Source: Candidatus Uhrbacteria bacterium (lineage in GTDB: Bacteria > Patescibacteriota > Patescibacteriia > JACQRZ01). From it: 64,000 bases of DNA. Position 1 is the stretch's first letter; every line of letters begins with the position of its first letter. The notes beneath the pieces were generated by a model. It saw only the letters and a program-made list of their open reading frames with translations. It was not told the origin of the DNA and ran no database searches. Shown one piece after another: positions 2,853 to 25,632 of this stretch. The position numbers were made by a program, and so were the translations under genes. The stretch spans positions 217,910 to 281,909 of the forward strand of contig JACQSC010000004.1 of the NCBI GenBank assembly GCA_016206155.1, in the 5' to 3' direction.

Positions 2853-4699
2853 AGGAGGCCGCGTATTTTTTTAACGATAGCCGCGCCGTTGATATGCTCG
2901 GCGGCAAGGAGTTCGTCGGGTGTACCGCTATGAGGCATTGTGCGTACGGCAAGTGAATGGACGGGTGTTTTTGTGTGAGAGAGGGCGGCTGCTACTGCTT
3001 CGCCGATGCCGCCTTCGGGGAGATGATCTTCTACGGTGATGATCGCCTTTGTTTCTCGTGCTGCTTTTTCCAATGTCTCCATGTCGAGTGGTTTTATTGA
3101 GTAGAGGTCAATGACACGCGTTGAGATTCCTTCATGTTTTAGCGTCTCGTGCGCCGCAAGCGCTTCATGGAGTGTAATGCCCGCCGCAACAATTGTTGCT
3201 CGATCGGTTGGATCTTCTCGAAGTGTCATGCTTCCGCCAATGCGGAATTGGTCATCGGTTGTATAGAGGAGGGGGGTGTCTTTGCGCGTTGTGCGAATAT
3301 AGACAAGGCCGTGAGTTCCAAGCGCGCGCTCGACAAGGCGCTCGCAGGAGATCGCATCTGACGGGTAGAGAACGACACTGTCCAAAAGCGAGCGGAACAA
3401 TCCGATATCTTCAAGGCCCATTTGCGACGCACCGTCCTCGCCGATAGAAACACCCGCATGCGATCCGCAAAACACGATGTCCGAATTGGCATATTGGCAC
3501 ATGCGAATCTGGTCATGCGCGCGGCTGAAAAATGCGGCAAACGTCGAGATGCACGGTTTTTTCCCACGGCGCGAGAGTCCAAGCGCGGCCCCAACCATGT
3601 TTTGTTCCGCGATAAACATCTCAAAGAATCGATCGGGATACGCGTTTTTAAAAAACTCCGCATACGTTGAATTACTCACCTCCGCGTCAAGTACGACCAT
3701 GGCGGGGTATTCTTGTGCAAGACGTACGAGGGCATTGCCATACGCGCGTCGCGTTGCAACAGCTTTATCAGGAGGATACAACACCGGGTCAAGTTGTGAT
3801 GTGGCTTGCTTTTTGCTTAATTCTTGATTCTTAATTCTTGATTCTTGCATCGCCGGTTCTGTAAGTGTGCCACGAATATCATAATCAATCTCACCAAGTT
3901 CTGCGAGCGCTTGTTCATATTCCTCTTGCTTCAATGCTTTTCCGTGCCAACCGTCTTTATTTTCCATGAATGAAATACCATTTCCTTTCAGGGTTTTTGC
4001 AATAATCATCGTTGGCCGATTGGATTGCAATGTATATACCTGTGTATATACATTACAAATTTCCTCTATGGAATGTCCGTCGATCACGTACGTTTTCCAA
4101 CAAAATGCCGCAATGCGTTTTTCATATGTATCACAATTGTGTTCAAGCATCGTTGGACCGCGCTGACCAAGACGATTAACATCAAGGATACCGACAAGAT
4201 TTCCAAGAGAATAGTGGGATGCCAGGGCAAGCGCTTCCCATACCGACCCCTCTGCCATTTCACTATCGCCCAAAAGGATCGTTGTGCGATACGGGAGTTT
4301 ATCGAGGTATTTTGCATTGATCGCCATGCCAACGCCGACGGAAAGTCCCTGGCCCAGTGAACCGGTTGGCGTCTCGGTGTAGGGGAAGTCCATGGTTGGA
4401 TGCCCTTCAAGGCGACTCCCCAGTTTGCGAAGACTTAAGAGTTCATCTTCCGGAATTGCTCCAGCCGCTGCCCACAGTGAATAGAAGAGTGGAGACGCGT
4501 GGCCCTTTGAAAAGATCAGCCGATCGTTGTTGTGGTAAGCCGTATCGTCCTTTTTGAACCTAAAGAATCCGCCAAAGAAAAGAGCGGCCATTAACTCAAC
4601 CGCCGACAGGCTCGATGATGGATGTCCGGATCCCGCTTCTGTCGTTGAGCGAAGAATATAATAACGAAGGAGTTTTGCCAGCTTATCTAAATCATGCAT
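2849..4699 (-). CDS. tkt: transketolase
   Basis: Motifs GHPSSSLSAVELMAALFF, SKGHASPLFYSLWAAAGAI and GSLGQGLSVGVGMAINAKY. The ORF track extends it to 5164, but the most plausible start is the ATG at 4699..4697 (MHDLDKLAKLLRYY...). The upstream extension only reads through palindromic repeats. Confidence 0.9.
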   Translation of the reverse strand: MHDLDKLAKLLRYYILRSTTEAGSGHPSSSLSAVELMAALFFGGFFRFKKDDTAYHNNDRLIFSKGHASPLFYSLWAAAGAIPEDELLSLRKLGSRLEGHPTMDFPYTETPTGSLGQGLSVGVGMAINAKYLDKLPYRTTILLGDSEMAEGSVWEALALASHYSLGNLVGILDVNRLGQRGPTMLEHNCDTYEKRIAAFCWKTYVIDGHSIEEICNVYTQVYTLQSNRPTMIIAKTLKGNGISFMENKDGWHGKALKQEEYEQALAELGEIDYDIRGTLTEPAMQESRIKNQELSKKQATSQLDPVLYPPDKAVATRRAYGNALVRLAQEYPAMVVLDAEVSNSTYAEFFKNAYPDRFFEMFIAEQNMVGAALGLSRRGKKPCISTFAAFFSRAHDQIRMCQYANSDIVFCGSHAGVSIGEDGASQMGLEDIGLFRSLLDSVVLYPSDAISCERLVERALGTHGLVYIRTTRKDTPLLYTTDDQFRIGGSMTLREDPTDRATIVAAGITLHEALAAHETLKHEGISTRVIDLYSIKPLDMETLEKAARETKAIITVEDHLPEGGIGEAVAAALSHTKTPVHSLAVRTMPHSGTPDELLAAEHINGAAIVKKIRGLL

Positions 4700-4738
4700 A
4701 CTTAGTGTCTGTTTATACAAAGAAGCGACACTACTCGG

Positions 4739-4789
4739 TGTCATCCCGCCGAAGGGCGGGATCTGGATTCCGGCCTGCGCCGGAATGAC
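4739..4789. repeat. REP-like double palindrome: two adjacent perfect 8-bp-stem hairpins enclosed by a 5-bp outer stem
   Basis: atcccgcc-gaag-ggcgggat at 4743..4762 and attccggc-ctgc-gccggaat at 4767..4786, bracketed by gtcat/atgac. It lies between the gnd stop (4803) and the tkt start (4699). Confidence 0.6.
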
Positions 4790-4802
4790 AACAGTAGCCG
4801 TT

Positions 4803-5717
4803 TTAGTGTCCTGGTTGTTCGTTTGGTTTGATGCTGTGTCCCCCAAACTGGTTGCGCAGCATGTTGACGACACGGCAGATATACGGAGGTTTTTCTGATG
4901 AGTGAACTCGGTATTGATACGATCCTTCAATGATTGGAACGTCAACGCCATGCCGCTTTGCCTCTTTGACCGTCCATTCTCCTTCTCCGGTGTGTCCAAT
5001 GATTGAAGCAATATCGCCAAGATCTTCACCGTATGCTTCATATCCACTCTGCGCCCATTCAACGAGGCGGGATTCGATAACGCTGCCATGATTATACAGC
5101 TTACAGACATCAATGAGATTATATTTAAAGGGCGCATTTTTGAGAAGCGCAAATCCTTCCGCAATCGCCTGCATCATGCCGTACTCAATGCCATTGTGAA
5201 TCATTTTTGCGTAATGGCCCGCACCGGCAGGACCAAGGTGGGCGTAATACCCATCATCTTTTGCAATATCTTTAATAAGCGGGAGGAGTTTTTCATAATC
5301 TTCTTTTTCTCCCCCGATCATGAGACAAGCGCCGTTGCGGGCACCGCCGGGTCCGCCGCTCACGCCGACTTCCATAAAATGGACGCCCGCCTCAGTAACT
5401 TTTTTTGCGCGGCGCAGTGTCAATTCATATTGCGAGTTTGCCGCCTCTACGATCATATCACCCGTTGAAAGAAGGGGAACAAGCTCGGCGAGCATATCGT
5501 CAATCACTGCCGAGGGAATCATGCTCCAGATCACGCGGGGAGTCTCCAGTTGTGCGACCACACCCGCATATGAATCGACGACCGTCACGCCAAGCTCGGC
5601 TGTTTTTGCGCGCGCTTCTTCACTGGGATCATAGCCAACGATTTCATGCCCCTTTTCTTTGAGGCGCGCAACCATGTTGTGTCCCATCTTGCCAAGTCCT
5701 AGATAGCCGATCTTCAT
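4803..5717 (-). CDS. gnd: 6-phosphogluconate dehydrogenase (decarboxylating), short form
   Basis: N-terminus MKIGYLGLGKMGHNMVARL, an NAD(P)-binding Rossmann fold, and family-typical motifs. Confidence 0.85.
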   Translation of the reverse strand: MKIGYLGLGKMGHNMVARLKEKGHEIVGYDPSEEARAKTAELGVTVVDSYAGVVAQLETPRVIWSMIPSAVIDDMLAELVPLLSTGDMIVEAANSQYELTLRRAKKVTEAGVHFMEVGVSGGPGGARNGACLMIGGEKEDYEKLLPLIKDIAKDDGYYAHLGPAGAGHYAKMIHNGIEYGMMQAIAEGFALLKNAPFKYNLIDVCKLYNHGSVIESRLVEWAQSGYEAYGEDLGDIASIIGHTGEGEWTVKEAKRHGVDVPIIEGSYQYRVHSSEKPPYICRVVNMLRNQFGGHSIKPNEQPGH

Positions 5718-11756: not shown

Positions 11757-12725
11757 ATGATGCACGAAGCTATTGCAGGTTTTGCAAAACAATTTGCATG
11801 GGAGCCTAAAGTTGAGAGACCAACAAAGAAAAAATTTAAAAGGGTGATCGTCGCGGGCATGGGGGGATCGCATTTGGCGGCAGACCTTCTCAAAAGCGTC
11901 CATAGGGAAATCCATATGAATATCCATAGGGATTATGGCTTGCCGTTTATTGCGCCAAGCGAGCGATCGGACACGCTCGTGATTGCAAGCTCGTATTCCG
12001 GAAACACTGAGGAAACAATCGATGCGTTTAAGGAAGCCGGAAAAAAGGGAGTCGCGCGCGCTGCAATAGCTATTGGAGGCAAACTTGAGAAGGTGGCTCG
12101 CGCCGCGCGAGTGCCGTATGTGCAGATGCCCGATACCGGCATTCAGCCTCGCTCGGCGCTGGGGTTTAGCATCAAAGGACTCGCCGCGCTGATGGAGCTT
12201 TCATCATTTACTATGGAGCTGTCGCGTCTCGCAAAAACATTAAAACCCGCGGCGAAGGAAGCACGAGGGAAAACACTTGCCAGAACACTCAAAGGAACCA
12301 TACCCATGGTCTATGCTTCGACCATGAATGAGGCGGTTGCGTATAATTGGAAGATTAAATGTAATGAGACCGGAAAAATTCCTGCGTTTTATAATGTTAT
12401 TCCAGAGCTTAACCACAATGAGATGACGGGATTTGACCATACGCTCAAGAGTGCGGGGCTTTCAAAAAAGTTTACGGTGTTGTTTCTTGCAGATGATGAT
12501 GATAATCCGCGAGTACAAAAACGCATGGCGATTCTTATAAAGCTTTACCGCAGCAGGGGACTTCAATGCGTTACCGTTCCCTTGAAAGGAGACGGCCGGT
12601 GGATGAAGATATTTTCATCCCTTGTACTTGCCGATTGGATTGCATACTATACGGCACTTTCCTACGGCGCAGAGCCAGAGCAGGTGCCGATGGTTGAGGA
12701 GTTTAAGGAGATGATTGCGCGATAA
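11757..12725 (+). CDS. SIS-domain bifunctional phosphoglucose/phosphomannose isomerase-like
   Basis: Motif VIVAGMGGSHLAADLL, a length of 322 aa, and archaeal-type PGI/PMI architecture. Confidence 0.55.
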   Translation: MMHEAIAGFAKQFAWEPKVERPTKKKFKRVIVAGMGGSHLAADLLKSVHREIHMNIHRDYGLPFIAPSERSDTLVIASSYSGNTEETIDAFKEAGKKGVARAAIAIGGKLEKVARAARVPYVQMPDTGIQPRSALGFSIKGLAALMELSSFTMELSRLAKTLKPAAKEARGKTLARTLKGTIPMVYASTMNEAVAYNWKIKCNETGKIPAFYNVIPELNHNEMTGFDHTLKSAGLSKKFTVLFLADDDDNPRVQKRMAILIKLYRSRGLQCVTVPLKGDGRWMKIFSSLVLADWIAYYTALSYGAEPEQVPMVEEFKEMIAR

Positions 12726-12858
12726 GAACTACTCTATCGGGTTATTGCCCATCGGGACCGGGTATTTTTCTGCTGAAAAATCCCTTAAACTCATGCCGTC
12801 GCATTCCGTATGTCCCTCTGGACAAAAACCCGATAGAGGGCTTCGTAATTTATGGAAA
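12726..12858. repeat. Structured intergenic element 'type A', copy 1: long closing stem plus internal hairpins, exactly filling the gap between convergent genes
   Basis: About 85% identical over ~100 nt to 26479..26613. The terminal stem ctctatcgggtt/aacccgatagag changes in a compensatory way in copy 2. Confidence 0.6.
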
Positions 12859-15798
12859 TTATAAACCGAGTGGCGCAAGGACAGAGGAATTCGGAAGATA
12901 GAACTGGGTCTGCGGAATAATCTCTTTTGGAATGCGGGAATGAGACCACGAGAGTCGAACGCGCGCATCGCCAGAATATTCTGCATAAACAACGCGGATA
13001 TAATAGAGGCGATCGCGCAAAAGCGTTTTTGTCGCTGTGTATTCTTGGGTTACGTTTGAACCTGTTGATATGAGCGGTGCCGCGGTTGGTGAAATGTGTG
13101 TATCGCCGATATAAAGAGCGGCGTGGTCGTCGGCTTGGAGATGGAACGTGTATGTTCCCTCATACTGGGGTTGGAGAAATCCCTCCCAACGAACAGAGTA
13201 GTTGTCTGTCGGAAGGCGCTCATCGACTTCACGTTCGCCCCATGGAAAATTAACTTTTACATCGGTCCGCTCAAAAACCGGATAAGGGAGCGCAACTTTT
13301 TCGGCAGTGTCAGCGCCCCTGTAATACCGTCCGCGCAAACCCGTTCCGTTACCACGCGGGCGGATCGGTTCAGGCGCAGGGTAGAGATATGCGCGGGGTA
13401 CAATTTCACGTGCGCGCCCACCTCGTTCCCAGAGGAGCTGGATGCCGGTTGGTCCGTCAACATCATAGGTTTCAATGCGAATAGGATATTTACCATGGTC
13501 GAGATATTTTGAAACACGATATTCGGTCGGATATGTCGATACCCGTCGCCATTCGTTCATAAGCATTGCGCTATTTTGATCAACCTCTTGAGATCCTTTG
13601 TCCCCGATCCACAAGTGAATACCGTCATCGACTCGTACGGTAAAGGTATATGTTCCTTTTTCCGGCGCCTCAATCCAACCGGTCCAGCGGACGGAGAAGT
13701 GATCGCGGGGAATTGCGGGGTCGGGCGTACCGTCCCCCCAGAGCAAATTAATTGTTGGATCGATTCGCGTAATGCCAAGCAAGGAAAGGCGGTCATCAAT
13801 AAAGTACTCACCCCAGAGGCCGGTTCCCGTTCCGTTCGCGCTACCAGATCCGCTTGCCCCACCAGTTCCGGCAGATGATATATCCGTCTTTGGAAGCGGG
13901 GTTGGATAGAGATGCTTTTTTGAGATGATTTCTCGGGCGGAACCCTTTCGTTGCCAGAACAGCTGAATGCCCGCTGGGCTGTCGAATTCAAAGTATTCCA
14001 CCCGTATCGGATATCGTTGCCCCGCCTCAAACCTTTTTTCCGCTGTATACTCTTCCATATAGTTCGACACGCGCCGCCATTCGTCCATAAGTTTCTCCTC
14101 GTCAATCCAGAGACGAATACCGTCGTCAACCCGCGCGACGATGGTATACGTTCCGCTCTCCGGCGCCTCAATCCAGCCGGTCCAGCGCGCGGAAAAGTGG
14201 TCTGCGTGCACAGCGGGGTCAGGAGCACGTTCGCGCCAGTCAAAGTTGATTGCTTCAGCCGGGTGTTGTGCCTTTAATGTCTCAAAGTTTTCTCCATCAA
14301 AATACTCGCCGAGTAGTCCTGTCCCTTGAAGCTTCGGCACGAGGGTGGCATACAGCGCCTCGCGCGGGACGATGGTGCGCTTGCCGTCAGATCCAGACCA
14401 CTGCAGGTTTATATTCGCAGTTTGGGTGTATTCTGTATACTCGAGCGCTAAAGAATACCGACGGCCCTGCTCAAGAAGAATCGGAAGCGCATGATTTATT
14501 TTTCCCGCGCGCATGCCCGTGGTATCAAGTACCGCATGCCCATCAATCGTAAGTTTTATACGATCGTCAACCCGGCTTGAGAATTGATAAAAGTCTGTCC
14601 GTTGTGCCTCTATTTCCCCGGTCCACTTCACTGAAAAATGATCGCTGTTGACCGGTCCGGTTTTCGGCGATCCGCGCCCCCAATCAAAGTTGATTGTCGG
14701 ATCAAGACGGGAAAAAGCCTGCTGTTCAAAATGTTCCCCGTTGTAGTACAGCCCCGCAAGGCCAGTTCCTTGCTTTTTTGGCTGTTGCTGTGCGCGGAGA
14801 GGAGCATAGAGCGCAGAGCGGGGAATGAGCTCCTTTTCCGGCGAAACAGCGTTTGACCAGAGGAGGCGCGCGCGGGCAACGCCACTTTCTTGGCGATAGG
14901 TCAGCGTGAAAGGATATAGTTTTCCCGCGACGAGAAACACCGACCCGGTTCGCTGTTCTGCCGGACCCTCGGATTGCGTTGATATCTCGGCTTTTCCATC
15001 TTCCCCTTGAAGTGAAAACGCAACGGGTCCGTCCGCGCTCGTATGAAAGCGGTAAAACGTAGATATGCGCGGCTCGATCTCTCCTGACCACGCAACGTCG
15101 AAGCGAAATTTTTCTTTGTTTTGAAAATCGACAGGAAGATCGAGTGAAACCGTTTGATCGGTGCGCGTGACCCGATAGGTCTCTGAATCAATATATTGCG
15201 TGATTGTTGCAAGGGCTCCGCTTCCTTTTCCTGCTGGAAGAAGTGCGGGAAGCGGCTCGGCGGAAAGATAGCGTGACGGAATAATTTCCCATACGCCGTC
15301 TGGTGTGCGCCACCAAAGCTGAACAAGGCCATTGTTCTGGCTGTGGCGTGATTTTAATCTGAGATGATAGGTGCGCCCCAGCTCAAAAAACGATTTCCTC
15401 GAAGAGGTGAATTCATAGGTGCCGGGCGTGCGCACGACAGCATCAGAGGGGGCGCCCTCGATAAGGAGCTCGTCGTTGACCCACAGCGCCGCCGCGCCAT
15501 CGCTAATAATGGTGAAAGCATACGTTCCGGTTGCGGGAGGATGGAGGTCGCCCCTCCACTCGGCTGTAAAAAAATCACTGCCAACCGGCGGGCGATTGGT
15601 CGCGTCCCATCGAAAGGAAATGCGCTCATCGGTGCGCATGGCGCCGATGTCACTGTTTCGTTCGATGCGCGTGATGGGATCGCCCGTGCTGTCATAATAG
15701 ATGCCGCGCAGTCCCGCAGACTCCTCGGCAAAAACGTCGCTTACAGCGGACATGGCAAGAAACAGCGCCAAAAGAAAGATACGTGCAAGATATTTCAT
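12859..15798 (-). CDS. Secreted protein with about five tandem PA14 domains
   Basis: Signal peptide MKYLARIFLLALFLAMSAVS. Repeated GL[RAL]G.Y[YF].....INF.W....P......F.S.RWTG.I.....Y.F....DDG..L.I motifs. Confidence 0.7.
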   Translation of the reverse strand: MKYLARIFLLALFLAMSAVSDVFAEESAGLRGIYYDSTGDPITRIERNSDIGAMRTDERISFRWDATNRPPVGSDFFTAEWRGDLHPPATGTYAFTIISDGAAALWVNDELLIEGAPSDAVVRTPGTYEFTSSRKSFFELGRTYHLRLKSRHSQNNGLVQLWWRTPDGVWEIIPSRYLSAEPLPALLPAGKGSGALATITQYIDSETYRVTRTDQTVSLDLPVDFQNKEKFRFDVAWSGEIEPRISTFYRFHTSADGPVAFSLQGEDGKAEISTQSEGPAEQRTGSVFLVAGKLYPFTLTYRQESGVARARLLWSNAVSPEKELIPRSALYAPLRAQQQPKKQGTGLAGLYYNGEHFEQQAFSRLDPTINFDWGRGSPKTGPVNSDHFSVKWTGEIEAQRTDFYQFSSRVDDRIKLTIDGHAVLDTTGMRAGKINHALPILLEQGRRYSLALEYTEYTQTANINLQWSGSDGKRTIVPREALYATLVPKLQGTGLLGEYFDGENFETLKAQHPAEAINFDWRERAPDPAVHADHFSARWTGWIEAPESGTYTIVARVDDGIRLWIDEEKLMDEWRRVSNYMEEYTAEKRFEAGQRYPIRVEYFEFDSPAGIQLFWQRKGSAREIISKKHLYPTPLPKTDISSAGTGGASGSGSANGTGTGLWGEYFIDDRLSLLGITRIDPTINLLWGDGTPDPAIPRDHFSVRWTGWIEAPEKGTYTFTVRVDDGIHLWIGDKGSQEVDQNSAMLMNEWRRVSTYPTEYRVSKYLDHGKYPIRIETYDVDGPTGIQLLWERGGRAREIVPRAYLYPAPEPIRPRGNGTGLRGRYYRGADTAEKVALPYPVFERTDVKVNFPWGEREVDERLPTDNYSVRWEGFLQPQYEGTYTFHLQADDHAALYIGDTHISPTAAPLISTGSNVTQEYTATKTLLRDRLYYIRVVYAEYSGDARVRLSWSHSRIPKEIIPQTQFYLPNSSVLAPLGL

Positions 15799-15919
15799 AG
15801 TGTCAACCCTATCACGCCGGCGCCATAAAATCAACTGATCTCGCACGCGCAGACCGCGTGCATTTCATTGACGAAAAAAATATGGTATGCTTGAAGTATA
15901 ATTCTTCACAAAGATCAAT

Positions 15920-16618
15920 ATGTGGAAAAAGTACGGTCTCATTATTGGCGCGTTGGTGATTGGGCTTGTCGGTGTCGTCTATTATGCCGTGCAGTTTGCT
16001 TCTTATCAGAAGCCCGAAAAGCAGGAGCCACAAGAACAGGCTCAAGCTGGAGAATGGTTTGACGGTGCATCGGGCGGCGGGCCTGGCGGTGGTGCACTTG
16101 AGGGCGCATCTGGCGGCGGTGCATCGGGCGGCTGGCCTGGCGGTGGTGCACCAGATGGCGCGGCAGTGGCGCCGCTCGCAGGGACGTCAGAGATTCCCAA
16201 TGCCGGATCAGCAGAAGGGATGACACTTCCTCCGGCACAGCCCCCTACTTTTGGCACGACAGTGCCACCGGTTGGTACGCCATCAGCAGCAGCGCCGGCG
16301 GATGCCGGCACTCCTCCTCCTGCGCCAATCGTTATTTCCTATGACGGAAAATCGTATACTCCCGCAAGCGTTGAAATAAAAAAGGGTGACCTTGTCATGT
16401 TTGTGAACATGGGAGAAGGAGAGATGTGGCCCGCATCGGCCATGCACCCAACGCACGCGGTCTACCCAACGATAGGCGTGTGTGGTGGAAGCACCTTTGA
16501 TGCTTGTGCCGGAGTTCCTGCCGGTGGGCAGTGGTCGTTTGTTTTTGACAAAGTGGGAAGCTGGAAATATCACGACCACCTCAATCCAAGCGTTCGCGGA
16601 ACGGTTAATGTGAAATAA
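15920..16618 (+). CDS. Membrane-anchored protein with a Gly/Pro-rich linker and a C-terminal cupredoxin-like domain
   Basis: N-terminal TM helix, then EIKKGDLVMFVNMGEGEMWPASAMHPTH and WKYHDHLNPSVRGTVNV near the C-terminus. Confidence 0.3.
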   Translation: MWKKYGLIIGALVIGLVGVVYYAVQFASYQKPEKQEPQEQAQAGEWFDGASGGGPGGGALEGASGGGASGGWPGGGAPDGAAVAPLAGTSEIPNAGSAEGMTLPPAQPPTFGTTVPPVGTPSAAAPADAGTPPPAPIVISYDGKSYTPASVEIKKGDLVMFVNMGEGEMWPASAMHPTHAVYPTIGVCGGSTFDACAGVPAGGQWSFVFDKVGSWKYHDHLNPSVRGTVNVK

Positions 16619-17439
16619 TGAAGCTTCAGCTTTACCTTACAACTGCCCTCTTGTCCGGCGCGGCATATCTCCTTTCGCTCTACGCAACGTCGGAGCGGGG
16701 CGAGCTTGATTTTTCTGCGCCTGCGACAGTCGTGGGGAGCGGTGGCGTTGATGAGCTTCTTTTGTTCCTTCTCTTTTTTGCCTGCGCAACCGCGTTTATG
16801 ATTGCTCTCTTTCGCATCTATCGGGGGACCGCGCTTTATCGAGTGCTGTTTTCGCTGGTTGCGGTTTTGGGGCTGGTGAAGCTGTTTGAAACAGTTTTTC
16901 CGCTCGAGTTCTCCGCAACGGTTGCGCTTGTCTTTCTTCTTGGGCTCTTTGTTGTTCCGACGGTATGGACGCACGATATCATTGTTATACTTGCGTCAGC
17001 GGGTATCGGATCGATGTTTGCCTTAAACTTTTCTGAATACACCGCGATCGCTCTTCTCTTGATCCTTTCTCTCTATGATGGCATCGCTGTTGTTGTCACG
17101 AAGCATATGATCGCGCTTGCGCATGAAATGATTCGCCATCAGGCAACATTTGCTCTTTTTGTTCCCGAACGATTGCGCGGCTTTGCCGCAGCGATCGGTA
17201 CGATTCGTCCAGGCGCCGGTTTCCTTGTCTTTGGCGGGGGCGATCTTGTTCTTCCGATGATATACTTATCTGTAATTGCCCGGGAGAGTACAACGCTCGC
17301 TGGATATGGCGTTGGCGGAGCTCTTGTTGGACAGTTCCTTAATCATATGTTTCTCACCACGCTACGAAAGCCAATACCGGCGCTCCCTTTAATCGCGCTG
17401 GGTGCGATTGCGGGCGTAGCGCTGGGGCGCTTTATATGA
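16618..17439 (+). CDS. GxGD intramembrane aspartyl protease, presenilin/SPP-like
   Basis: Motifs LYDGIAV (YD), FGGGDLVLP (GxGD) and KPIPALPL (PAL), each within a hydrophobic segment. Confidence 0.5.
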   Translation: MKLQLYLTTALLSGAAYLLSLYATSERGELDFSAPATVVGSGGVDELLLFLLFFACATAFMIALFRIYRGTALYRVLFSLVAVLGLVKLFETVFPLEFSATVALVFLLGLFVVPTVWTHDIIVILASAGIGSMFALNFSEYTAIALLLILSLYDGIAVVVTKHMIALAHEMIRHQATFALFVPERLRGFAAAIGTIRPGAGFLVFGGGDLVLPMIYLSVIARESTTLAGYGVGGALVGQFLNHMFLTTLRKPIPALPLIALGAIAGVALGRFI

Positions 17440-18905
17440 AAACACTGATATTCAAACGGACGCTTCTGCTCGGCGCCATTGTCATTGCACTGTCAACGAT
17501 GGGGCTCTCGTGTACTTTTTTTCAATCGGAAGACGCTGTTAAAGAGGCACAACGTCCCATTACGCTTGAGTTCTGGGGTGTTTTTGATGAAGGATCCTCA
17601 TTTGATCCTCTCATCGCCGCGTATCGAATAGAACATCCAAACGTTACCATCAATTACCGTAAATTTCGCCCCGAGGAATACGAGCAGGAGATTATTGAGG
17701 CGCTTGCCGAGGATCGCGGACCAGATATCCTTGCCATTCATAACACATGGGTAGACAAGTACATCAACAAGCTGGCGCCAATGCCACCGGTGATGAATAT
17801 CAGTTTTGTTGTGACAAAGGGCAAGGTAAAACAGGTGACCGAGGCAGAGGTGCGCCAGATAAAAGGATACACGCCCGCCTCTATTCAAGAGGCATTTGTG
17901 CCGACGGTAGTTGACGATGTGATTCGGTTCATTGACGGGAGTCCGCGCATTCTCGGCCTGCCGTTCTCGGTTGATACGCTCGCGCTTTTTTATAATCAGA
18001 CACTCTTGCGAAACACCGGCGTGATTCTCGCGCCGCCAAAGTATTGGGCGGTTTCGGATGACGATCCTCAGGCGACGCAGAAGCGCGTGTTGTTTCAGGA
18101 TTTTGTATCGCAGGCAGCGAGATTGACCGTCTTTACTGACGAGATGACAAGGGAAATTATTCAATCCGGCGCGGCATTTGGCAGCGCGAATAACATCGCG
18201 CGCGCCAACGACATACTTGCAACCCTTATGCTGCAGAACGGCAGCCAGATGGCTGGTGATAGTACGGTTAACTTCGATTACGACCCTTCCTTCCCGCGCC
18301 CGCTTGCCGTCAATCCGGGTGTTGAGGCGTTGCGCTTCTACACGGATTTTGCCTCTCCGTCTAAACAGATCTATGTCTGGAACGAGACGTTCCCTGAGAG
18401 TTTTGAGGCGTTTGCGCAAGGCAGAACAGTGATGTTTTTTGGCTATTCGTATCATGCGAGCCAGCTGGCGTCGCGCGCGCCCCAGCTTCGGTTGGGGGTG
18501 GCGCCTGTTCCTCAAATTAATCCAAACCGGCCGGCTGTTTCCGCCAACTATTGGGTGAATGGCGTTTCACGGAAATCAAAGAACCAAGAGTATGCGTGGG
18601 ATTTTTTGCGCTTTGCAACACAGCCGGAAGTGCTAAAAGGTTATCTTGCGGCCGCCAAGCGCCCCACACCACTGCGCAGCCTCATTGATGAGCAAAAAAA
18701 AGATCCACAACTCGAACCGTTTGTGTCCCAGCTTTTTTATGCCCGTAACTGGTATCATGGCAAGAACCCCTCCTCTATGGAAAATGCATTTACCGAAATG
18801 ATTAACGGCGCGTTTCAGAGCAAAGCCTCATCGAACGAGGAGCATCGTGCAGAATTGACCCGCCTCATGGACGACGCGCAAAAAATCATCCAAAATGGGT
18901 GGTGA
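17436..18905 (+). CDS. ABC transporter solute-binding lipoprotein (carbohydrate-type)
   Basis: N-terminus LSTMGLSCTFF (lipobox-like), with overall extracellular solute-binding protein features. Confidence 0.6.
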   Translation: MKTLIFKRTLLLGAIVIALSTMGLSCTFFQSEDAVKEAQRPITLEFWGVFDEGSSFDPLIAAYRIEHPNVTINYRKFRPEEYEQEIIEALAEDRGPDILAIHNTWVDKYINKLAPMPPVMNISFVVTKGKVKQVTEAEVRQIKGYTPASIQEAFVPTVVDDVIRFIDGSPRILGLPFSVDTLALFYNQTLLRNTGVILAPPKYWAVSDDDPQATQKRVLFQDFVSQAARLTVFTDEMTREIIQSGAAFGSANNIARANDILATLMLQNGSQMAGDSTVNFDYDPSFPRPLAVNPGVEALRFYTDFASPSKQIYVWNETFPESFEAFAQGRTVMFFGYSYHASQLASRAPQLRLGVAPVPQINPNRPAVSANYWVNGVSRKSKNQEYAWDFLRFATQPEVLKGYLAAAKRPTPLRSLIDEQKKDPQLEPFVSQLFYARNWYHGKNPSSMENAFTEMINGAFQSKASSNEEHRAELTRLMDDAQKIIQNGW

Positions 18906-18953
18906 TAAAAAAATTTCAGATTTCAGATTTATGATTTTTGACGAAATATAGTC

Positions 18954-20120
18954 ATGAAATGGATTCACCCCACTGTCATTTCCCTGATGAGCGTTATCGG
19001 AGCTGCATTTTTTCTCTTTCCCGGAGAGGTGTCGGCGCAAGAGGGAATTATTCCCCAGTGTGCCTGGGCAGCAGGAGAGACCTATGGCCTTGGCGCGTTT
19101 ACCCTACTTGCGATAAACGTTCTCAAGTTCATCTGGGGCATTTTAGGCAGTCTTGCCCTCGTGATGTTCGTCTGGGGCGGTTTTCTCTGGCTCACTGCGC
19201 GCGGAGAAGAGAATCAAATTAAGCAGGGATGGGACACGCTCGTCAACGCCGCTATAGGCCTCTTAATAGTGCTTGGCAGCTGGCTGATTATCAATACGAT
19301 TATCCTCTCCCTGACAACGCCGGGCGACTGGAGTAAAGTCGCGCGGGTTTTTTCCAAGGATTGGTCTGAGCTTGTCAGAGGAGATATTTGCGTCAATGTT
19401 GCCGCGAGCGTGAAAAGCTGGGGAATGGGAAAGGCGGCATCCGGCTCGGCGGCAACCGGTGGGGGGGATGGTGTATGTTGTCTGGAGAGTAATTTAGGCG
19501 CAGTATTTAACAAGGGCGTAAATGAAGATCGTTGCAAGCAGCTATTAATCAAACTTGCAAATAACGGTGCTAGCAGACAGCCGACAGCATACTATTGTCC
19601 TTCATCTGTCGATGAATCCGTATGTGGAAACAAAGAGATACGAGGGGGCGCTCGCTATAATCCTGATGACAAGACGGGTGAATATTGGAGAATGAATTGT
19701 TCTTCTGGACAGGTAGTCTACTCGATTATAAATAAAGGTGATGTATGCGCGGATGATAAAAAAATTTGCCGGGAACCTTATGTGTGTCTCCCAACGGGAG
19801 GGGGGAAGAAGTGTGTCGATGAGAACGAACAAGGAAAGTGTGTTTTGGTTGTTTCGGCTACCCTTGGTAGCGAGACGAAAAAAATTGTTGCGACATTCGA
19901 TACTGGCACGAAGAGAGATGATTGCAAAGGAAAAACATATCCAAACACAACGATTACTATGAATTCGCAGAGTTGGACTATAACGGGCGTTGAATATATT
20001 CAATGGTGTGAACAAGACGCATCAGATGGAAGCGTGTGGTCATCCGATTCTTCGCCAGGAATCAACGCAGTTGAAAAAGAATTTGGAAGGTGGGGAAGAA
20101 CGTGCGTTTCTGTAAAGTAG
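18954..20120 (+). CDS. Pilin-like paralog P1: TrbC/VirB2-like two-helix core followed by a 270-aa Cys-rich C-terminal extension
   Basis: Signal peptide, then the core FVWGGFLWLTARGEENQIKQGWDTLVNAAIGLLIVLGSW. Confidence 0.55.
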   Translation: MKWIHPTVISLMSVIGAAFFLFPGEVSAQEGIIPQCAWAAGETYGLGAFTLLAINVLKFIWGILGSLALVMFVWGGFLWLTARGEENQIKQGWDTLVNAAIGLLIVLGSWLIINTIILSLTTPGDWSKVARVFSKDWSELVRGDICVNVAASVKSWGMGKAASGSAATGGGDGVCCLESNLGAVFNKGVNEDRCKQLLIKLANNGASRQPTAYYCPSSVDESVCGNKEIRGGARYNPDDKTGEYWRMNCSSGQVVYSIINKGDVCADDKKICREPYVCLPTGGGKKCVDENEQGKCVLVVSATLGSETKKIVATFDTGTKRDDCKGKTYPNTTITMNSQSWTITGVEYIQWCEQDASDGSVWSSDSSPGINAVEKEFGRWGRTCVSVK

Positions 20121-20125
20121 CATCG

Positions 20126-20933
20126 AGTGATGGGGTCAGTAATGCAGTAATGGGGTCAGTGCAGTAATGGGGTCAGGAGCCATTATTTTTAAGTTATGAT
20201 ATGCTATAATCATGCCACGAACTATACGATCCGATATTGCCGACATGAGCTATCACGTTATTAATCGAGCCAATGCTCGTGTGCAGATTTTTTCTACCCA
20301 GCAAGAATTTCGACAATTCGAAGACGCTCTTTCAGAAGCGCGTGAAAAGACTGGGATGCGTATTTATGCATACGTTATCATGCCAAACCACTGGCATTTA
20401 GTTGTTTCACCATGTGCTGATGGAGATCTTAAACGATTTATGGCGTGCCTTACCATGACGCATACACAACGCTGGCACAGAGACCACAATTCCGTTGGCA
20501 CGGGGCATCTTTATCAGGGGCGATATAAAGCGTTTATTGTTGGTACAGATGACTATTTTATTACAGTTTGTCGTTATGTTGAACAAAATCCACTACGCGC
20601 AAACCTTACACCTCGTGCGGATGAGTGGAGGTGGGGCAGTCTCTGGAGAAGACAGTTTGGGTCAAGAGAAGAAAAAGCAATGCTTTCATCATGGATAACG
20701 GAAGCGCCACGATCATATCTTCAGTGGGTGAACGAGCGCGATGAAGATGATCGCCTTGAACGTATTCGTACATGTGTGAATAGGGGGCGCCCCTTTGGCT
20801 CTCCGACTTGGACAGAAGAAATAGTTAAGCGTTTTAAGTTAGAATCAACCCTTCGTTCTGTCGGGAGGCCATGGGATAAAAATAATGGCTCCTGACCCCA
20901 TTAACCTTTGAACTGACCCCATTAACCTTTGAA
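20126..20933 (+). mobile_element. REP-RAYT unit: inverted REP-like repeats flanking an IS200-like Y1 transposase
   Basis: Three copies of GCAGTAATGGGGTCAGT at 20126..20177 and two copies of CTGACCCCATTAACCTTTGAA at 20892..20933, in opposite orientations. Confidence 0.7.
20212..20895 (+). CDS. REP-associated tyrosine transposase (IS200/IS605-like Y1 TnpA)
   Basis: HuH motif PNHWHLVV and catalytic Tyr context YQGRYK. Confidence 0.8.
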   Translation: MPRTIRSDIADMSYHVINRANARVQIFSTQQEFRQFEDALSEAREKTGMRIYAYVIMPNHWHLVVSPCADGDLKRFMACLTMTHTQRWHRDHNSVGTGHLYQGRYKAFIVGTDDYFITVCRYVEQNPLRANLTPRADEWRWGSLWRRQFGSREEKAMLSSWITEAPRSYLQWVNERDEDDRLERIRTCVNRGRPFGSPTWTEEIVKRFKLESTLRSVGRPWDKNNGS

Positions 20934-21710
20934 ATGAGAAAAATGAGAATTGACACCATTTTACTTTTGCTGAGCGGGATTTTATTTTTCGCGGGAAGTG
21001 GCGACATTGCTTTTGCTGGAAGGGGCGGTAATACACCATGTCCAGACACCTACGCCGTTAGATCACCCTATTTGGCGACACCTGCCGGCTGCAGCAGTTT
21101 ATGTGTGAGCGAAGGGTATGCCTATGGCAGTGCAACTACATGTGACAATGAGACGGCATGCCTTTGTTCTGGCACTGGCACTGGCGGTGGAGGGGCTGGC
21201 GGGTCTGGAGCTAGCGCGGGATCCGGTTCGGGAAGCGGTGGATCTACTGGTGCGGCAAAGTCCGCGTGCCCCGGAGCATTTTTGAGTCCGCCTTCGGACC
21301 CAGTTGCGTGTGGAGTGGCGTGCGGGAAAGCAGATTTTCGTCAGTCGAAGTTTGATAGTGATGGATTTTCAAACGGAGCCGCAAAATGCTGTTGTTACGA
21401 ACGTAGGGGAGCCAGTACACCAAATGATGAAAAAAATAAGGCGGCATTCGGACCCGAAGTCGCCAGTCCCTTTGGGCCTAAGTTTAACGTTCCCGAACTT
21501 ATCGGAGACACACTTCGGCGGTTTTTGGAAATTATCGGCATCATCGCGCTGGTGATTTTTATCTACGGTGGATTTCTGTGGATGATATCGCTTGGGGACG
21601 AGACGCGGGTCAAACGCGGCCGCGAAACCATGATCTGGGCGGGTATGGGGCTCATCGCGATTTTGGGAAGCTATATTGTTATTAAATTTATCCTCGACGC
21701 CGTGCTTTAA
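20934..21710 (+). CDS. Pilin-like paralog P2 (Cys/Gly-rich ectodomain plus conserved C-terminal core)
   Basis: C-terminal core IYGGFLWMISLGDETRVKRGRETMIWAGMGLIAILGSY. Confidence 0.6.
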   Translation: MRKMRIDTILLLLSGILFFAGSGDIAFAGRGGNTPCPDTYAVRSPYLATPAGCSSLCVSEGYAYGSATTCDNETACLCSGTGTGGGGAGGSGASAGSGSGSGGSTGAAKSACPGAFLSPPSDPVACGVACGKADFRQSKFDSDGFSNGAAKCCCYERRGASTPNDEKNKAAFGPEVASPFGPKFNVPELIGDTLRRFLEIIGIIALVIFIYGGFLWMISLGDETRVKRGRETMIWAGMGLIAILGSYIVIKFILDAVL

Positions 21711-21747
21711 CCATTGACACAATTTTCCAAAAGTATATACTATTGGT

Positions 21748-22029
21748 ATGAATACATACGCTGTTGTCAATATAAAAACCGACCCAAAGGTCAAGGATCG
21801 CGCAGCGCGCGTTGCGGAGAAACTCGGGGTGAGCATCAACGCCGTACTCAACAACGAGCTCCGTCGTTTTGCCCTTGAAGAGAGCGTAACGTTTGACACA
21901 CCGTCCGCGCCGAATCTCAGCACGCAAAAAACGCTTACTCGCTCTCGTAAGCAGATTGAGCGGGGCGATTATTATCGTTTTCAGGACAACGGGGCGGCTA
22001 TTGATTTTTTGCGCTGCGAACTTCAATGA
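21748..22029 (+). CDS. dinJ: RelB/DinJ-family antitoxin
   Basis: N-terminus NIKTDPKVKDRAARVAEKLGVSINAVLN. Confidence 0.65.
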   Translation: MNTYAVVNIKTDPKVKDRAARVAEKLGVSINAVLNNELRRFALEESVTFDTPSAPNLSTQKTLTRSRKQIERGDYYRFQDNGAAIDFLRCELQ

Positions 22030-22283
22030 TTATTTCGTATTCAAAAAATTTTATAAAGCAGGCGAAAAAACTTCCCCATCCCATTCGCGAACAACTCACA
22101 GAACGTATCATCCGTTTTAGCACAAACCCCCTTGACCCGCTTCTTCGGAATCATAAACTTAAAGGCGCATGGAGAGAATATGGAAGTATAAATGTTACCG
22201 GCGATTATCGAGCACTCTATTTTTTGCGTGGCGATGAAGTAATTTTTGACCACGTTGGCACTCATGCACAGCTCTATGAATAA
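22026..22283 (+). CDS. yafQ: RelE/YafQ-family mRNA-interferase toxin
   Basis: 85 aa, overlaps dinJ by 4 nt, C-terminal motif GDYRALYFLRGDEVIFDHVGTHAQLY. Confidence 0.6.
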   Translation: MIISYSKNFIKQAKKLPHPIREQLTERIIRFSTNPLDPLLRNHKLKGAWREYGSINVTGDYRALYFLRGDEVIFDHVGTHAQLYE

Positions 22284-22326
22284 AGAAACGAGACGCGTGT
22301 CAAAGGCGGCGCGTTAAATACGATAT

Positions 22327-22875
22327 ATGAAAAGGACTATCTTTTTTGTAGCAGTAATTTTTTTGGGGAGCGGTTTTTCTTTGCCAATACCCGCCAGTGC
22401 CCTTAACGCATGTGGGGGCCAGCCACTTGCCGGGACAGTATCCAATCCTATTAATAGTGAGGGGGAATGCAGAACAAAATGTTCAGGCCTTGGAGGGGGG
22501 TATACATTTAAAGAGTATAGCGCCGGCGGTTTTACCGGACTCGATCCGAGCAAAAAATTTACATGTTGCTGTGGGAGACAGCCAGCCGGAGGCGCAGTCT
22601 GCCCTGCCGGTCTGACGTGCCTTGACGATCCGCTTGGCACTGCGGACATTCCTACACTCATCGGTTTGGTTCTGCGCGGGCTCTTTGCCATCATCGGCGC
22701 CATTGCGCTTATTATTTTCATTTATGGCGGCGCGCTCTGGATGACGGCATTTGGGGAAGAGGCAAAAGTGAAGAGGGGATGGGACACCATGATCTGGGGG
22801 GCTATCGGGTTGGTGGTGATCTTTGGCAGCTACGTCGCGGTTGACTTTATCCTCAAGGCAATCCTTGGAAGCTAG
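22327..22875 (+). CDS. Pilin-like paralog P3
   Basis: Core IYGGALWMTAFGEEAKVKRGWDTMIWGAIGLVVIFGSY. Confidence 0.6.
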   Translation: MKRTIFFVAVIFLGSGFSLPIPASALNACGGQPLAGTVSNPINSEGECRTKCSGLGGGYTFKEYSAGGFTGLDPSKKFTCCCGRQPAGGAVCPAGLTCLDDPLGTADIPTLIGLVLRGLFAIIGAIALIIFIYGGALWMTAFGEEAKVKRGWDTMIWGAIGLVVIFGSYVAVDFILKAILGS

Positions 22876-22929
22876 ACAAGTCACGCCGAAGCTCGCCACC
22901 GCCGAAGGCTATGGCGCAGCGAAGGTGGA

Positions 22930-22959
22930 TTGACACCATTTGGCGTTTTTTTGTATAAT
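22930..22959 (+). promoter_or_regulatory. sigma70-like promoter upstream of P4
   Basis: TTGACA at 22930..22935, an 18-nt spacer, and TATAAT at 22954..22959. Confidence 0.45.
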
Positions 22960-22975
22960 ATAAGAAGCATCTCTG

Positions 22976-23416
22976 TTGATAACTTTTAACCATATAAGAA
23001 TAGGTATGGGTACACAATTTTTGCGACACGTGATCGCAGGAGCGATGTTCTCGTTTCTTGCGTTTGGACTTTTGGGCGCCCCGGCATTTGCCGAGGAGTT
23101 TAATGTGAATAACCCGTTGGATTATATCCGTCCGGGAAGTAACACAGTTGAGGACGCCATTCCGGGGAGATACAAAGACCCCCGCGAGATTGTCAGGGAT
23201 ATTATTAACATTTTTTTGGGGTTCTTGGGGGTTATTGCCGTGATTATCATCCTCATGGCTGGCTTCCAGTGGATGACCGCCGGCGGTGAGGAGGAAAAGG
23301 TTGCCGAGGCGCGCCAGCGTTTGATCCAGGGTGCCATCGGACTGGTACTGATTATTGCCGCGTGGATCATCGCGTACTTCGTTATAGACCAGCTCGTTAA
23401 GGCAATTCAGAGATAA
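22976..23416 (+). CDS. Pilin-like paralog P4
   Basis: Core MAGFQWMTAGGEEEKVAEARQRLIQGAIGLVLIIAAW. Confidence 0.65.
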   Translation: MITFNHIRIGMGTQFLRHVIAGAMFSFLAFGLLGAPAFAEEFNVNNPLDYIRPGSNTVEDAIPGRYKDPREIVRDIINIFLGFLGVIAVIIILMAGFQWMTAGGEEEKVAEARQRLIQGAIGLVLIIAAWIIAYFVIDQLVKAIQR

Positions 23417-23571
23417 TTGAATCTGGCGAATAACATTCACCAGATTCATCCCGCACATGGTTGCGGGATCCAGAAGCACTATCTGTAAAGACATTCATTC
23501 AATAGTAACACACCATAGGTCAGTAAAAAACGTTTCTTGCTAATTTCAATTAATATTAATAATAGAAAAAT

Positions 23572-24015
23572 ATGAGTACACGACTCATGAAACACATTAT
23601 GGCGGGAGCGATGTTCTCGTTCCTTGCATTGGGACTATTGGGCGGACCAATGCTTGCTGGCGCAGCGGATGGTCCGACAATTGACCCAAAGACTTTCAAG
23701 GTAAATGCTCCGGAGCAGTATTTTGGCGCGAATTCCGGAGAAGGATATACGAGTGTTGGCCCCGGCAAGTACAAGGATCCGCGGGAGCTTGCAAAGAACA
23801 TTATCAATATCATTCTTGGCTTTCTCGGTATTGTTGCCGTGATCATCATCCTCATGGCGGGCTTCCAGTGGATGACCGCCGGCGGAGAAGAGGAAAAGGT
23901 TACCGAGGCACGCCAGCGTTTGATTCAGGGCGCCATCGGACTTGTGCTCATTATCGCCGCATGGATTATCGCCTACTTCGTTATTGACCAGCTCGTTAAG
24001 GCAATTCAGACGTAA
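23572..24015 (+). CDS. Pilin-like paralog P5
   Basis: Its C-terminal 70 aa are nearly identical to P4; the N-terminal ectodomain is different. Confidence 0.65.
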   Translation: MSTRLMKHIMAGAMFSFLALGLLGGPMLAGAADGPTIDPKTFKVNAPEQYFGANSGEGYTSVGPGKYKDPRELAKNIINIILGFLGIVAVIIILMAGFQWMTAGGEEEKVTEARQRLIQGAIGLVLIIAAWIIAYFVIDQLVKAIQT

Positions 24016-24021
24016 CTATTC

Positions 24022-24462
24022 GTGAGAATGACCATCCAAGACACCGTCGAAAACGTGTCAAGGGCGGAGCGCTTGAGGATACTGCTTGGCAGGGCGGTGT
24101 TGGGGCTTTTAGGCGCGGCGCTGCTCTTTGCGCCGCTCGTCGTGGCACAAGGAGCCATAACGTCTGCAAATACGGGATTGAACGAAACCGCAAGAAATGC
24201 GGGGTATCAGACGACCAATGTCTCGATCCCCCAGTTTGTCGGAACGGTTATTAATGCCGCACTCGGCATTATCGGTGTTATCTTCTTGGTGCTTATCGTC
24301 TATGGCGGTATGCTCTGGATGCTTTCGGAGGGAGATGAAACGAAGATTGGCAGCGCCCGAGGGCTCATCTTCCACTCGATTATCGGTTTGATTCTTGTTC
24401 TTTCTGCCTACGCGATCACTTCGTTTGTTGTGGGATCCATTATAAAAGGCACGCTGAATTAA
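24022..24462 (+). CDS. Pilin-like paralog P6
   Basis: Core VYGGMLWMLSEGDETKIGSARGLIFHSIIGLILVLSAY. Confidence 0.6.
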   Translation: MRMTIQDTVENVSRAERLRILLGRAVLGLLGAALLFAPLVVAQGAITSANTGLNETARNAGYQTTNVSIPQFVGTVINAALGIIGVIFLVLIVYGGMLWMLSEGDETKIGSARGLIFHSIIGLILVLSAYAITSFVVGSIIKGTLN

Positions 24463-24503
24463 AGTACGACTTGCGCAGGCGGGCACATTTCATCGTCGTG
24501 GGG

Positions 24504-24821
24504 CCACCATTTATGGCAAACCTTAAACAGGAGATAAACGCAAAACTTCAAAACGCCGGAGAAGCGAATGCGGGGTATGCGAGCACAGATATCGCAGCAG
24601 TTATCGGCAACGTCGTTCTCACTCTTTTAACGATTCTTGGCGTTGTCTTTATTGTTCTCATTGTCTTTGCGGGATTTAGGTGGATGCTCGCGCAGGGCGA
24701 GGAGCAAAAAATTACCGAGGCCCGCAATCTCATCATTCATTCAATTATCGGACTTCTGGTCGTATTAGCCGCATATGCCATCAGTTACTTTGTCATCAGC
24801 GCACTCCAAAAAGCCGTCTAG
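24504..24821 (+). CDS. Pilin-like paralog P7 (core only, no obvious signal peptide)
   Basis: Core FAGFRWMLAQGEEQKITEARNLIIHSIIGLLVVLAAY. Start chosen at MANLKQ; the ORF track starts it at 24471. Confidence 0.5.
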   Translation, partial: PPFMANLKQEINAKLQNAGEANAGYASTDIAAVIGNVVLTLLTILGVVFIVLIVFAGFRWMLAQGEEQKITEARNLIIHSIIGLLVVLAAYAISYFVISALQKAV

Positions 24822-25230
24822 ACTAGAAGGGGTTGGTCGTACGCTTGCGCGACTTACTCTTGTTTCAAGCGCGCTTTCCTTCATCGTCGCGCTTCTTGTT
24901 GTAACCACGGAGACCCACGCGCTCACCGCGCCAATACTTGAGAAGCTGAATATCGCGCGCAACGTTGCCTGGGGGCCGACGGCGCAGCAGAGCATCGGCC
25001 TTATCGTCGGAAGCGTTATCCTTACAGCTCTTGGCTTGCTCGGCGTTATATTTGTGGTACTCTTAACCTATGGAGGGTTCCTGTGGCTTACGTCCGCCGG
25101 CGAGGAGGACAAGGCAAAAAAAGCGCGGGATCTCATTGTTAACTCACTGATAGGCATCTTCATCGTGATTGCGGCGTACAGCATCGGCTACTTTGTCCTT
25201 TCGCGATTGAGTGAGGCAGTAGTAACATGA
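24775..25230 (+). CDS. Pilin-like paralog P8
   Basis: Core TYGGFLWLTSAGEEDKAKKARDLIVNSLIGIFIVIAAY. It overlaps the end of P7, and I found no alternative in-frame start. Confidence 0.55.
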   Translation: MPSVTLSSAHSKKPSRLEGVGRTLARLTLVSSALSFIVALLVVTTETHALTAPILEKLNIARNVAWGPTAQQSIGLIVGSVILTALGLLGVIFVVLLTYGGFLWLTSAGEEDKAKKARDLIVNSLIGIFIVIAAYSIGYFVLSRLSEAVVT

Positions 25231-25628
25231 AAAAGTTTTTTCTCCTTTTTGGCATAGCTCTTTTTTTGGCCACGCCGACACTAGCATTCGGTGCAAGCGT
25301 TCTTGAGAATGCCCTGTACGCAGATCCGACCTCCGAAACCAATAAGCTGCTCAATAAATTTGTGCCCGGGGCAGGGGTGATAAAAACACCAGGTGTTATT
25401 GTCTTTGAAGTTCTTCAAATTATTTTGGGATTCCTTGGCATTGTCGGTGTTATCATGATGATTTATGCCGGTTTTCTCTGGCTCACCGCCGGTGGGGAAG
25501 AAGAGAAGGCAAAGCAAGGGCGCACCATTCTCTTTCAGGCAATTATTGGAATTCTTATTGTCTTGGCGTCGTATACTATTACCTATTTTATCATTGCGCA
25601 GCTTACCACCGCGGTTGTAAACCGATAG
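25227..25628 (+). CDS. Pilin-like paralog P9
   Basis: Core IYAGFLWLTAGGEEEKAKQGRTILFQAIIGILIVLASY. Confidence 0.65.
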   Translation: MKKFFLLFGIALFLATPTLAFGASVLENALYADPTSETNKLLNKFVPGAGVIKTPGVIVFEVLQIILGFLGIVGVIMMIYAGFLWLTAGGEEEKAKQGRTILFQAIIGILIVLASYTITYFIIAQLTTAVVNR

Positions 25629-25632
25629 GGCC

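Follow-up and report, generated by a model that had tools for sequence, protein, structure and literature searches.

The two structured intergenic blocks at positions 12,722-12,855 and 26,475-26,617 of the window (the whole 64,000-nucleotide stretch of DNA analysed here, from Candidatus Uhrbacteria) in all likelihood belong to a family of non-autonomous DNA transposons, MITEs of approximately 144 bp that occur in Patescibacteria related to Candidatus Uhrbacteria; we put the probability of this reading at about 0.88. The assignment is based on terminal inverted repeats (TIRs), an 8-bp target-site duplication, an orthologous site without the element (locus L028) and the occurrence of 14 or more copies in a related MAG, CAYJLM01. 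The original prediction had offered a bidirectional terminator-like RNA and, as the alternative, a MITE family; these four observations uphold the latter. The element is small, has no transposase ORF, and occurs as dispersed copies at sites that were found both filled and empty.

Copy 1 (plus strand, 134 nt) and copy 2 (plus strand, 143 nt from TIR to TIR) are separated by 13.8 kb, have the same orientation and share approximately 113 nt at 89% identity in a pairwise alignment. A block of 39 nt, GGGACCGGGTATTTTTCTGCTGAAAAATCCCTTAAACTC, is identical in the two copies (2 matches in the window versus 0.00 expected from shuffles), and a 20-nt block is also exactly common to them; the two predicted copies with their core of approximately 100 nt were thus confirmed where they had been placed. 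The covariance model R1, which was built from 17 copies of the family, matched copy 1 at 12,713-12,855 (123 bits, E=2e-28) and copy 2 with 152 bits (E=1e-35), and found only these two copies in the window. The left terminal repeat of copy 1 is eroded, with about 8 nt (GAAACTCC) absent, and the TAA stop codon of the neighbouring PGI gene (12,723-12,725) lies within its remnant.

Both copies are predicted to fold into a long outer stem around a three-way junction with two small hairpins, and the folds of the two copies on either strand have z values between -5.3 and -10.8 relative to shuffled sequence (-10.7 for copy 2). The left arm of the outer stem of copy 1, CTCTATCGGGTT (12,733-12,744, plus strand), has its partner, AACCCGATAGAG, at 12,827-12,838. 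The three-way-junction core of copy 1 (12,754-12,816, plus strand), a part that is near-invariant in the family alignment, consists of P3 (GGGAC), hairpin A (12,760-12,784, loop TGCT), the junction TTAAACTC (12,785-12,792), hairpin B (12,793-12,804, ATGC-CGTC-GCAT), the junction TCCGTAT and the closing GTCCC (12,812-12,816). The corresponding core of copy 2 extends from 26,516 to 26,578 on the plus strand, with hairpin A at 26,522-26,546 and hairpin B at 26,555-26,566 (GGGC-CGTC-GCCC). The stems differ between the copies by a compensated indel of 2 nt, copy 2 having CTCT[GT]ATCG/CGAT[AC]AGAG where copy 1 has CTCTATCG.../...CGATAGAG, and the inner hairpin covaries as well (AUGC..GCAU in copy 1 versus GGGC..GCCC in copy 2). 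The extra outer stem of copy 2 is GAATTACGAAACTC/GAGTTTCGTAATTC, of which copy 1 retains the right arm only. The claims that the enclosing stems had co-varied and that copy 2 possesses an additional outer stem were therefore correct. Rfam contained nothing relevant to the copies at the gathering score, which in the window yielded three tRNAs only, or at E <= 10 in the interval 12,500-13,100, and neither copy overlaps a tRNA or tmRNA.

The clearest traces of insertion are at copy 2. Its left TIR, CTTTGAATTACGAAACTC (26,475-26,492, plus strand, 18 nt; 2 matches in the window versus 0.09 expected), pairs with one mismatch with the right TIR, CCTTGAATTACGAAACTC (26,600-26,617, minus strand), so that the two ends of the copy read CTTTGAATTACGAAACTC / GAGTTTCGTAATTCAAGG; the terminal repeats are conserved across copies. 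The element is flanked by the octamer CTCCCTAG at 26,467-26,474 and again at 26,618-26,625, with all eight positions matching. The left octamer contains the TAG stop codon of a T4SS-pilin-like gene (26,064-26,474, plus strand; Pfam T4SS_pilin, E=3e-6). Locus L028 has the same convergent gene pair without the element, its 587-aa protein being 57% identical to that of the window. When the element and one CTCCCTAG are removed, the window sequence aligns without a gap to L028, which has CTCCGTAG once; this comparison was made by a reconstruction alignment.

On the right side of copy 2 lies the gene of the 587-aa protein (26,612-28,375, minus strand), which has no Pfam hit and whose product is 100% identical to HY623_03310 of Candidatus Uhrbacteria. 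The stop codon of this gene, TGA (complement of 26,612-26,614), is in the right TIR, and thus the element supplies the last codon and the stop of its neighbour. From the reconstructed site, as judged by eye, we infer that the convergent genes had originally overlapped and that the insertion replaced about nine C-terminal residues of the 587-aa protein. Copy 1 is situated between the bifunctional PGI/PMI (SIS) gene (11,757-12,725, plus strand; Pfam bact-PGI_C, E=4e-41), which ends at the left edge of the copy, and a PA14/GLEYA repeat protein gene (12,859-15,846, minus strand; Pfam PA14, E=5e-120), the end of which is 3 nt from the right edge. No exact-sequence record was found for the PGI and pilin proteins of the window. 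Both copies had been described as lying between the stop codons of convergent genes. This holds for the two gaps (PGI/PA14 and pilin-like/587-aa), with the correction that the 587-aa gene has its stop codon inside copy 2; the earlier label "GT-C" for the product of that gene is not matched by any Pfam hit.

Target-site duplications were sought at 12 complete copies of the family by determining the best match between 8-mers of the two flanks. Four copies gave scores of 8, 8, 7 and 7, the perfect duplications belonging to copy 2 and L014 and those with seven matches to L010 and L013. Among mismatched pairs of left and right flanks a score of 8 was never seen, and a score of 7 was obtained in 6 of 132. 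A recognisable duplication is thus kept in only about a third of the copies; none is recognisable in the flanks of copy 1, and for the copy in L004 none could be defined. The original prediction had treated target-site duplications and structural covariation as pointing in opposite directions. Duplications are indeed present, but the two properties are not exclusive, and covariation is present too.

The gap between the PGI and PA14 genes is informative in other genomes as well. It is filled by a copy of the element in the Logan contig L004, the PGI of which is 72% identical to that of the window, it is empty (20 nt) in L007, whose PGI is 90.7% identical to that of L004, and in L006 it measures 65 nt and has no element. 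Taking this distribution into account, the insertion in L004 is most simply explained as independent of copy 1, the same gap having been hit twice. At the gap of copy 2, L027 (587-aa protein 73% identical) has a different palindromic element, homologous to the "Type B" repeats of the window described below. These two cases show that convergent gaps are recurrent landing or survival sites of such elements, even though convergence is not a rule of the family. In L005 an AAA_14/DUF4143 ATPase gene (3,535-4,827) is located between PGI and the PA14 gene, with a distant paralogue in the window at 50,789-51,967 (24% identity); this gene is another sign that the PGI/PA14 gap tolerates insertions.

More copies, which the original prediction had proposed to look for, were found. 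The strict core pattern CCCTTAAACTCN{8,20}CCGTATGTCCC proved too strict and had no match in the viral, genome and metagenome collections, whereas a loosened pattern of junction and hairpin B loop was productive. With the latter, at least 14 copies were detected in CAYJLM01 among GTDB genomes and 4 further copies in metagenome loci; one more is in the Logan contig L004. Model R1 recovered all family copies with scores of 142-174 bits. The copies are 134-145 nt long. The record of CAYJLM01 is titled "uncultured Gammaproteobacteria bacterium", a taxonomic label that looks wrong. One of its loci, L021, is syntenic with positions 15,920-24,015 of the Uhrbacteria window at 38-65% amino acid identity, the T4SS-pilin arrays included, and CAYJLM01 is therefore a relative within the Patescibacteria. 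The species to which the window belongs is present in the samples SRR12113401, SRR12113390 and SRR12113432, and three independent Logan contigs of this species terminate inside the element, as expected for a repeat. BLASTN searches of plasmids and phages and searches of viral collections with the consensus gave no match, and searches of full-text literature turned up no described MITE family in Patescibacteria/CPR.

The sites occupied by the family are diverse. Thirteen could be classified: 3 are convergent gaps, 6 are tandem, 1 is divergent, and 3 are inside ORFs. The tandem copies are usually only 5-22 nt away from both neighbours, and both orientations relative to the host genes occur. With 3 of 13 sites convergent, the suggested preference for convergent gaps does not hold as a rule of the family.

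The three intragenic copies, all in CAYJLM01, are situated in long ORFs whose reading frame continues through the element. One is in Dus, a tRNA-dihydrouridine synthase (L012), where residues 245-297 of the query correspond to residues 224-237 of the chain in PDB 1vhn, the insert amounting to about 40 extra residues between the barrel and the C-terminal domain. A second is in a UvrD/AddA-like helicase-nuclease (L015), in which 93 residues take the place of 32 in 4c2u, and the third is a half copy, in frame, in a GT4 glycosyltransferase (L011). Frames +2 and -2 of the consensus, in which L012 and L015 are read, are free of stop codons, and the six frames together contain 9 stop codons versus approximately 16 expected (P = 0.01-0.04). 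The open frames encode peptides of only about 47 aa (e.g. SGPDIFLLKNSLNS) and there is no ORF for a transposase; a protein search with four concatenated element-encoded peptides returned no proteins. The intragenic copies retain the core at the nucleotide level. L011 also contains, at 1,444-1,485 and directly upstream of a gene start, a 36-nt remnant made up of two element termini only (CCTTGAATCACGAGATTC joined to GAGTTTCAAAATTAAAA), which may have arisen from the element by internal deletion or may be the footprint of its excision.

The alignment of 17 copies allowed the structure to be assessed on both strands. For the plus strand RNAalifold gave 39 base pairs, with 95.5% of the cells paired and double changes in 20 of the 39. 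None of 500 column shuffles reached as high a value for cells paired, for compensated pairs or for the covariation score, and in slid registers only 41-59% of the cells were paired. The minus strand gave 50 pairs (95.0% paired, 25 with double changes), and its RNA was predicted to be the more stable one in 17 of 17 copies, by 9.4 kcal/mol on average. Departures of the G-U type outnumber those of the A-C type when cells are counted (32 versus 15), but not when columns are counted (10 versus 13). The near balance of the columns fits a constraint that acts on DNA and is symmetric with respect to the strands, or inheritance from few master copies.

The element folds back on itself over nearly its whole length, and sequence conservation is concentrated in its centre. 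Columns 44-104, which contain P3, hairpin A (loop UGCU), the junction CUUAAACUC, the CGUC loop of hairpin B and the junction UCCGUAUG, are near-invariant among genomes whose flanking proteins are 38-75% identical, whereas the identity of the arms between copies is 52-89%. The three outer pairs of hairpin B occur in seven forms, mostly complementary; no link between these variants and the target sequence was apparent by eye, in a comparison of three nucleotides that has no statistical power. A conserved centre combined with variable termini and outer stems is the reverse of what is found in a textbook MITE and hints at a function of the core of its own. Most duplications have decayed and yet 95% of the stem cells pair, which suggests that complementarity was kept after insertion or within master lineages. 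Selection on the fold-back form and arm-to-arm templated repair are candidate causes; templated repair accounts more readily for the 2-nt indel, compensated in the opposite arm, by which the window copies differ.

These properties bear differently on the explanations that compete with, or extend, the MITE reading. A recent segmental duplication, by which one intergenic region would have been copied to the other, could account for two copies in the same orientation only 13.8 kb apart, and the original prediction had named such a duplication, with the flanking genes included, as a finding that would refute it. It retains almost no probability: the two regions resemble each other only within the element and have unrelated genes on either side, copy 2 is flanked by a duplication of its own and is absent from the orthologous site in L028, and many copies are present at unrelated loci elsewhere. 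The Y1 (IS200/RAYT-like) transposase encoded at 20,212-20,895 might be thought to mobilise the blocks as REP/BIME-like elements, since the gene, with its perfect 27-nt inverted repeats, is only 6 kb from copy 2, and transposases of this class act on single-stranded hairpins, which would fit the covariation of the arms. Y1 transposases are not known to leave target-site duplications on insertion; nor are REPs, which have a length of approximately 35 bp and are associated with RAYTs. The 8-bp duplication and the length of 144 bp do not agree with this expectation, the element termini show no relationship to the repeats that flank the Y1 gene (TAATGGGGTCAG...), and we rejected this enzyme as the mobiliser; a REP/BIME-like identity is accordingly very improbable.

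More can be said for a host-encoded bidirectional terminator or 3'-end RNA hairpin of convergent genes. Both window copies and the copy in L004 occupy precisely the space between two convergent stop codons, their hairpins have a very high stability on either strand, the stems covary, and there are precedents in SPRITE and some REP elements, which are biased to convergent 3' ends (PMC3184786). However, scans of copies 1 and 2 for promoters and terminators found none; neither copy has a U-tract or a terminator consensus on either strand, and no T-runs flank the outer stems. Six copies are 5-22 nt from neighbours of the same direction, a position in which strong termination would have polar effects, one occupies a divergent gap and three lie within ORFs, the orientation relative to the host genes is mixed, and the target-site duplication with the empty site shows that the block arrived by insertion. 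These findings speak against the terminator-like RNA of the original prediction, and such a primary identity is improbable, although the hairpin at both convergent 3' ends may influence RNA ends as a side effect. The explanation least easily dismissed, and still an unlikely one, is that the core together with the hypervariable, paired hairpin is a functional module carried by the mobile element: a cis-acting single-stranded DNA or RNA fold-back structure used in mobilisation, or a small RNA co-opted by the host, in which case the MITE label would be half the story. The near-invariance of columns 44-104 between flanking proteins and arms that have diverged so much further, the invariant loops and junctions next to a hairpin B stem with seven variants, nearly all paired, the consistently greater stability of the minus-strand RNA (50 versus 39 pairs), the pairing of 95% of the stem cells when most duplications have decayed, and the retention of the core nucleotides in intragenic copies all agree with such a module. 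Against it stand the lack of an Rfam match even at E <= 10, the lack of a promoter or terminator consensus inside the element, the mixed orientation relative to host transcription and the approximately balanced G-U and A-C columns; moreover, gene conversion or recent horizontal spread could keep the core uniform.

If the element is a MITE, as we favour, a DDE-type transposase encoded elsewhere would mobilise it in trans by binding the TIRs and making cuts staggered by 8 bp; the DDE class is suggested solely by the terminal repeats and the 8-bp duplication. An autonomous element with matching termini was not found in the window, in the 28 loci or in viral contigs, nor was a second pair of element termini present in the window or the fetched loci. 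The viral contigs gave 17 single hits with a 17-mer of the terminal repeat, which we attribute to chance. Three of these hits have a weak inverted match at a spacing of 451 nt, and the one of the three that was inspected (L030) proved to be unrelated, its sequence not resembling the element. The fold-back form, as single-stranded DNA or RNA, would matter for spread or persistence of the element, a step suggested by the compensated substitutions and the 2-nt indel, which preserve the arms while most duplications decay. Any effect on transcript 3' ends, with the hairpin acting as a barrier or as a stabiliser, would be incidental and not the reason for the presence of the element.

Several known repeat families resemble the element in part. 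Bacterial MITEs such as Correia/NEMIS, ERIC, RUP and Nezha are similar in their small size, TIRs, target-site duplication, lack of transposase coding capacity, high copy number, mostly intergenic location and folding into a long hairpin. The present element differs from them in having a centre more conserved than its termini, in its Patescibacteria host, and in that no parent insertion sequence was found. The Rickettsia palindromic elements (RPE; Ogata et al. 2000) are described in PMC10969869 and PMC3184786 as palindromic repeats found between genes and in frame within genes. In common with these, the element is a palindromic repeat (approximately 105-150 bp) of a reduced genome that has open frames and both intergenic copies and copies in frame in mutually unrelated housekeeping genes; unlike RPE, it has clear TIRs and an 8-bp duplication, it has so far provided only 3 intragenic cases, and it comes from another phylum. 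By analogy it appears to work like an RPE, which is not a claim that it belongs to the RPE sequence family. According to PMC3184786, bcr1 of the Bacillus cereus group is a mobile repeat of about 155 bp with short direct repeats, in which compensatory changes keep a cruciform-like structure. Its locations are not conserved between relatives and its stems show compensatory changes, as is the case here, whereas its direct repeats of 5 bp and its known transcription set it apart from an element with an 8-bp duplication. SPRITE of S. pneumoniae (PMC3184786) has a motif resembling a Rho-independent terminator; SPRITE and some REPs share the enrichment near convergent 3' ends, and the terminator motif of SPRITE has no counterpart in the element. 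There is thus a precedent for each feature: gene invasion in RPE, stem compensation in bcr1, and enrichment at convergent 3' ends in SPRITE and some REPs.

For annotation these results mean that structured intergenic blocks of Uhrbacteria-like genomes should be recorded as mobile repeats and not as regulatory RNAs, and that the element breaks short-read assemblies and changes the 3' ends of genes, as seen from the supplied stop codon and the replaced C-terminus. The genomes of Patescibacteria are tiny and densely packed and are usually deemed to contain little mobile DNA. The persistence of a MITE family there shows that selfish DNA can survive in streamlined genomes, by using repeatedly "safe" gaps and by being tolerated in frame in Dus, the helicase and the glycosyltransferase, in parallel to RPE in Rickettsia, an unrelated lineage with reduced genomes. 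Should the core prove functional, core and gene invasions together would constitute a second, independent "protein-coding palindrome" system, in the ultra-small genomes of Patescibacteria. If the core structure is needed for movement, this would be an unusual, hairpin-dependent transposition in which one arm templates the repair of the other. With its invariant core and freely covarying stems the family is a tractable object for distinguishing DNA-level from RNA-level maintenance of MITE structure.

The window contains other repeats besides the two copies of the element, referred to here as Type A. The Type B palindromic family (approximately 150 nt) has copies at 28,415-28,575 (minus strand) and 30,125-30,295 (plus strand), which are inverted relative to each other and 80% identical over 109 nt, one of them overlapping the stop codon of RuvA. 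Its homologue in L027 (3,570-3,725) is in the gap between the pilin and 588-aa genes, exactly where the window has Type A. A further palindrome, Type C (29,441-29,582), whose arms of 30 nt have 87% complementarity and enclose 82 nt, is located just upstream of ruvA and has no similarity to Type A. Approximately nine small paralogous T4SS-pilin-like genes are arranged in tandem at 22,976-26,474, where they give rise to the repeat families D1, D3, D12 and D14, and this array is conserved in L027. Within the pilin gene cluster, the segment 20,129-20,923 encodes the Y1 transposase mentioned above (227 aa; ORF 20,212-20,895, plus strand; Pfam Y1_Tnp, IS200-like, E=1e-18); its perfect 27-nt inverted repeats are at 20,165-20,191 and 20,877-20,903, tandem (T)AATGGGGTCAG motifs are present on both sides (5 matches versus 0.73 expected), and the unit looks RAYT/REPtron-like or IS200-like. 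At 53,336-60,521 the direct-repeat families D2, D4, D7 and D9-D11 point to a putative cluster of paralogous genes or repeated domains approximately 2.4 kb apart.
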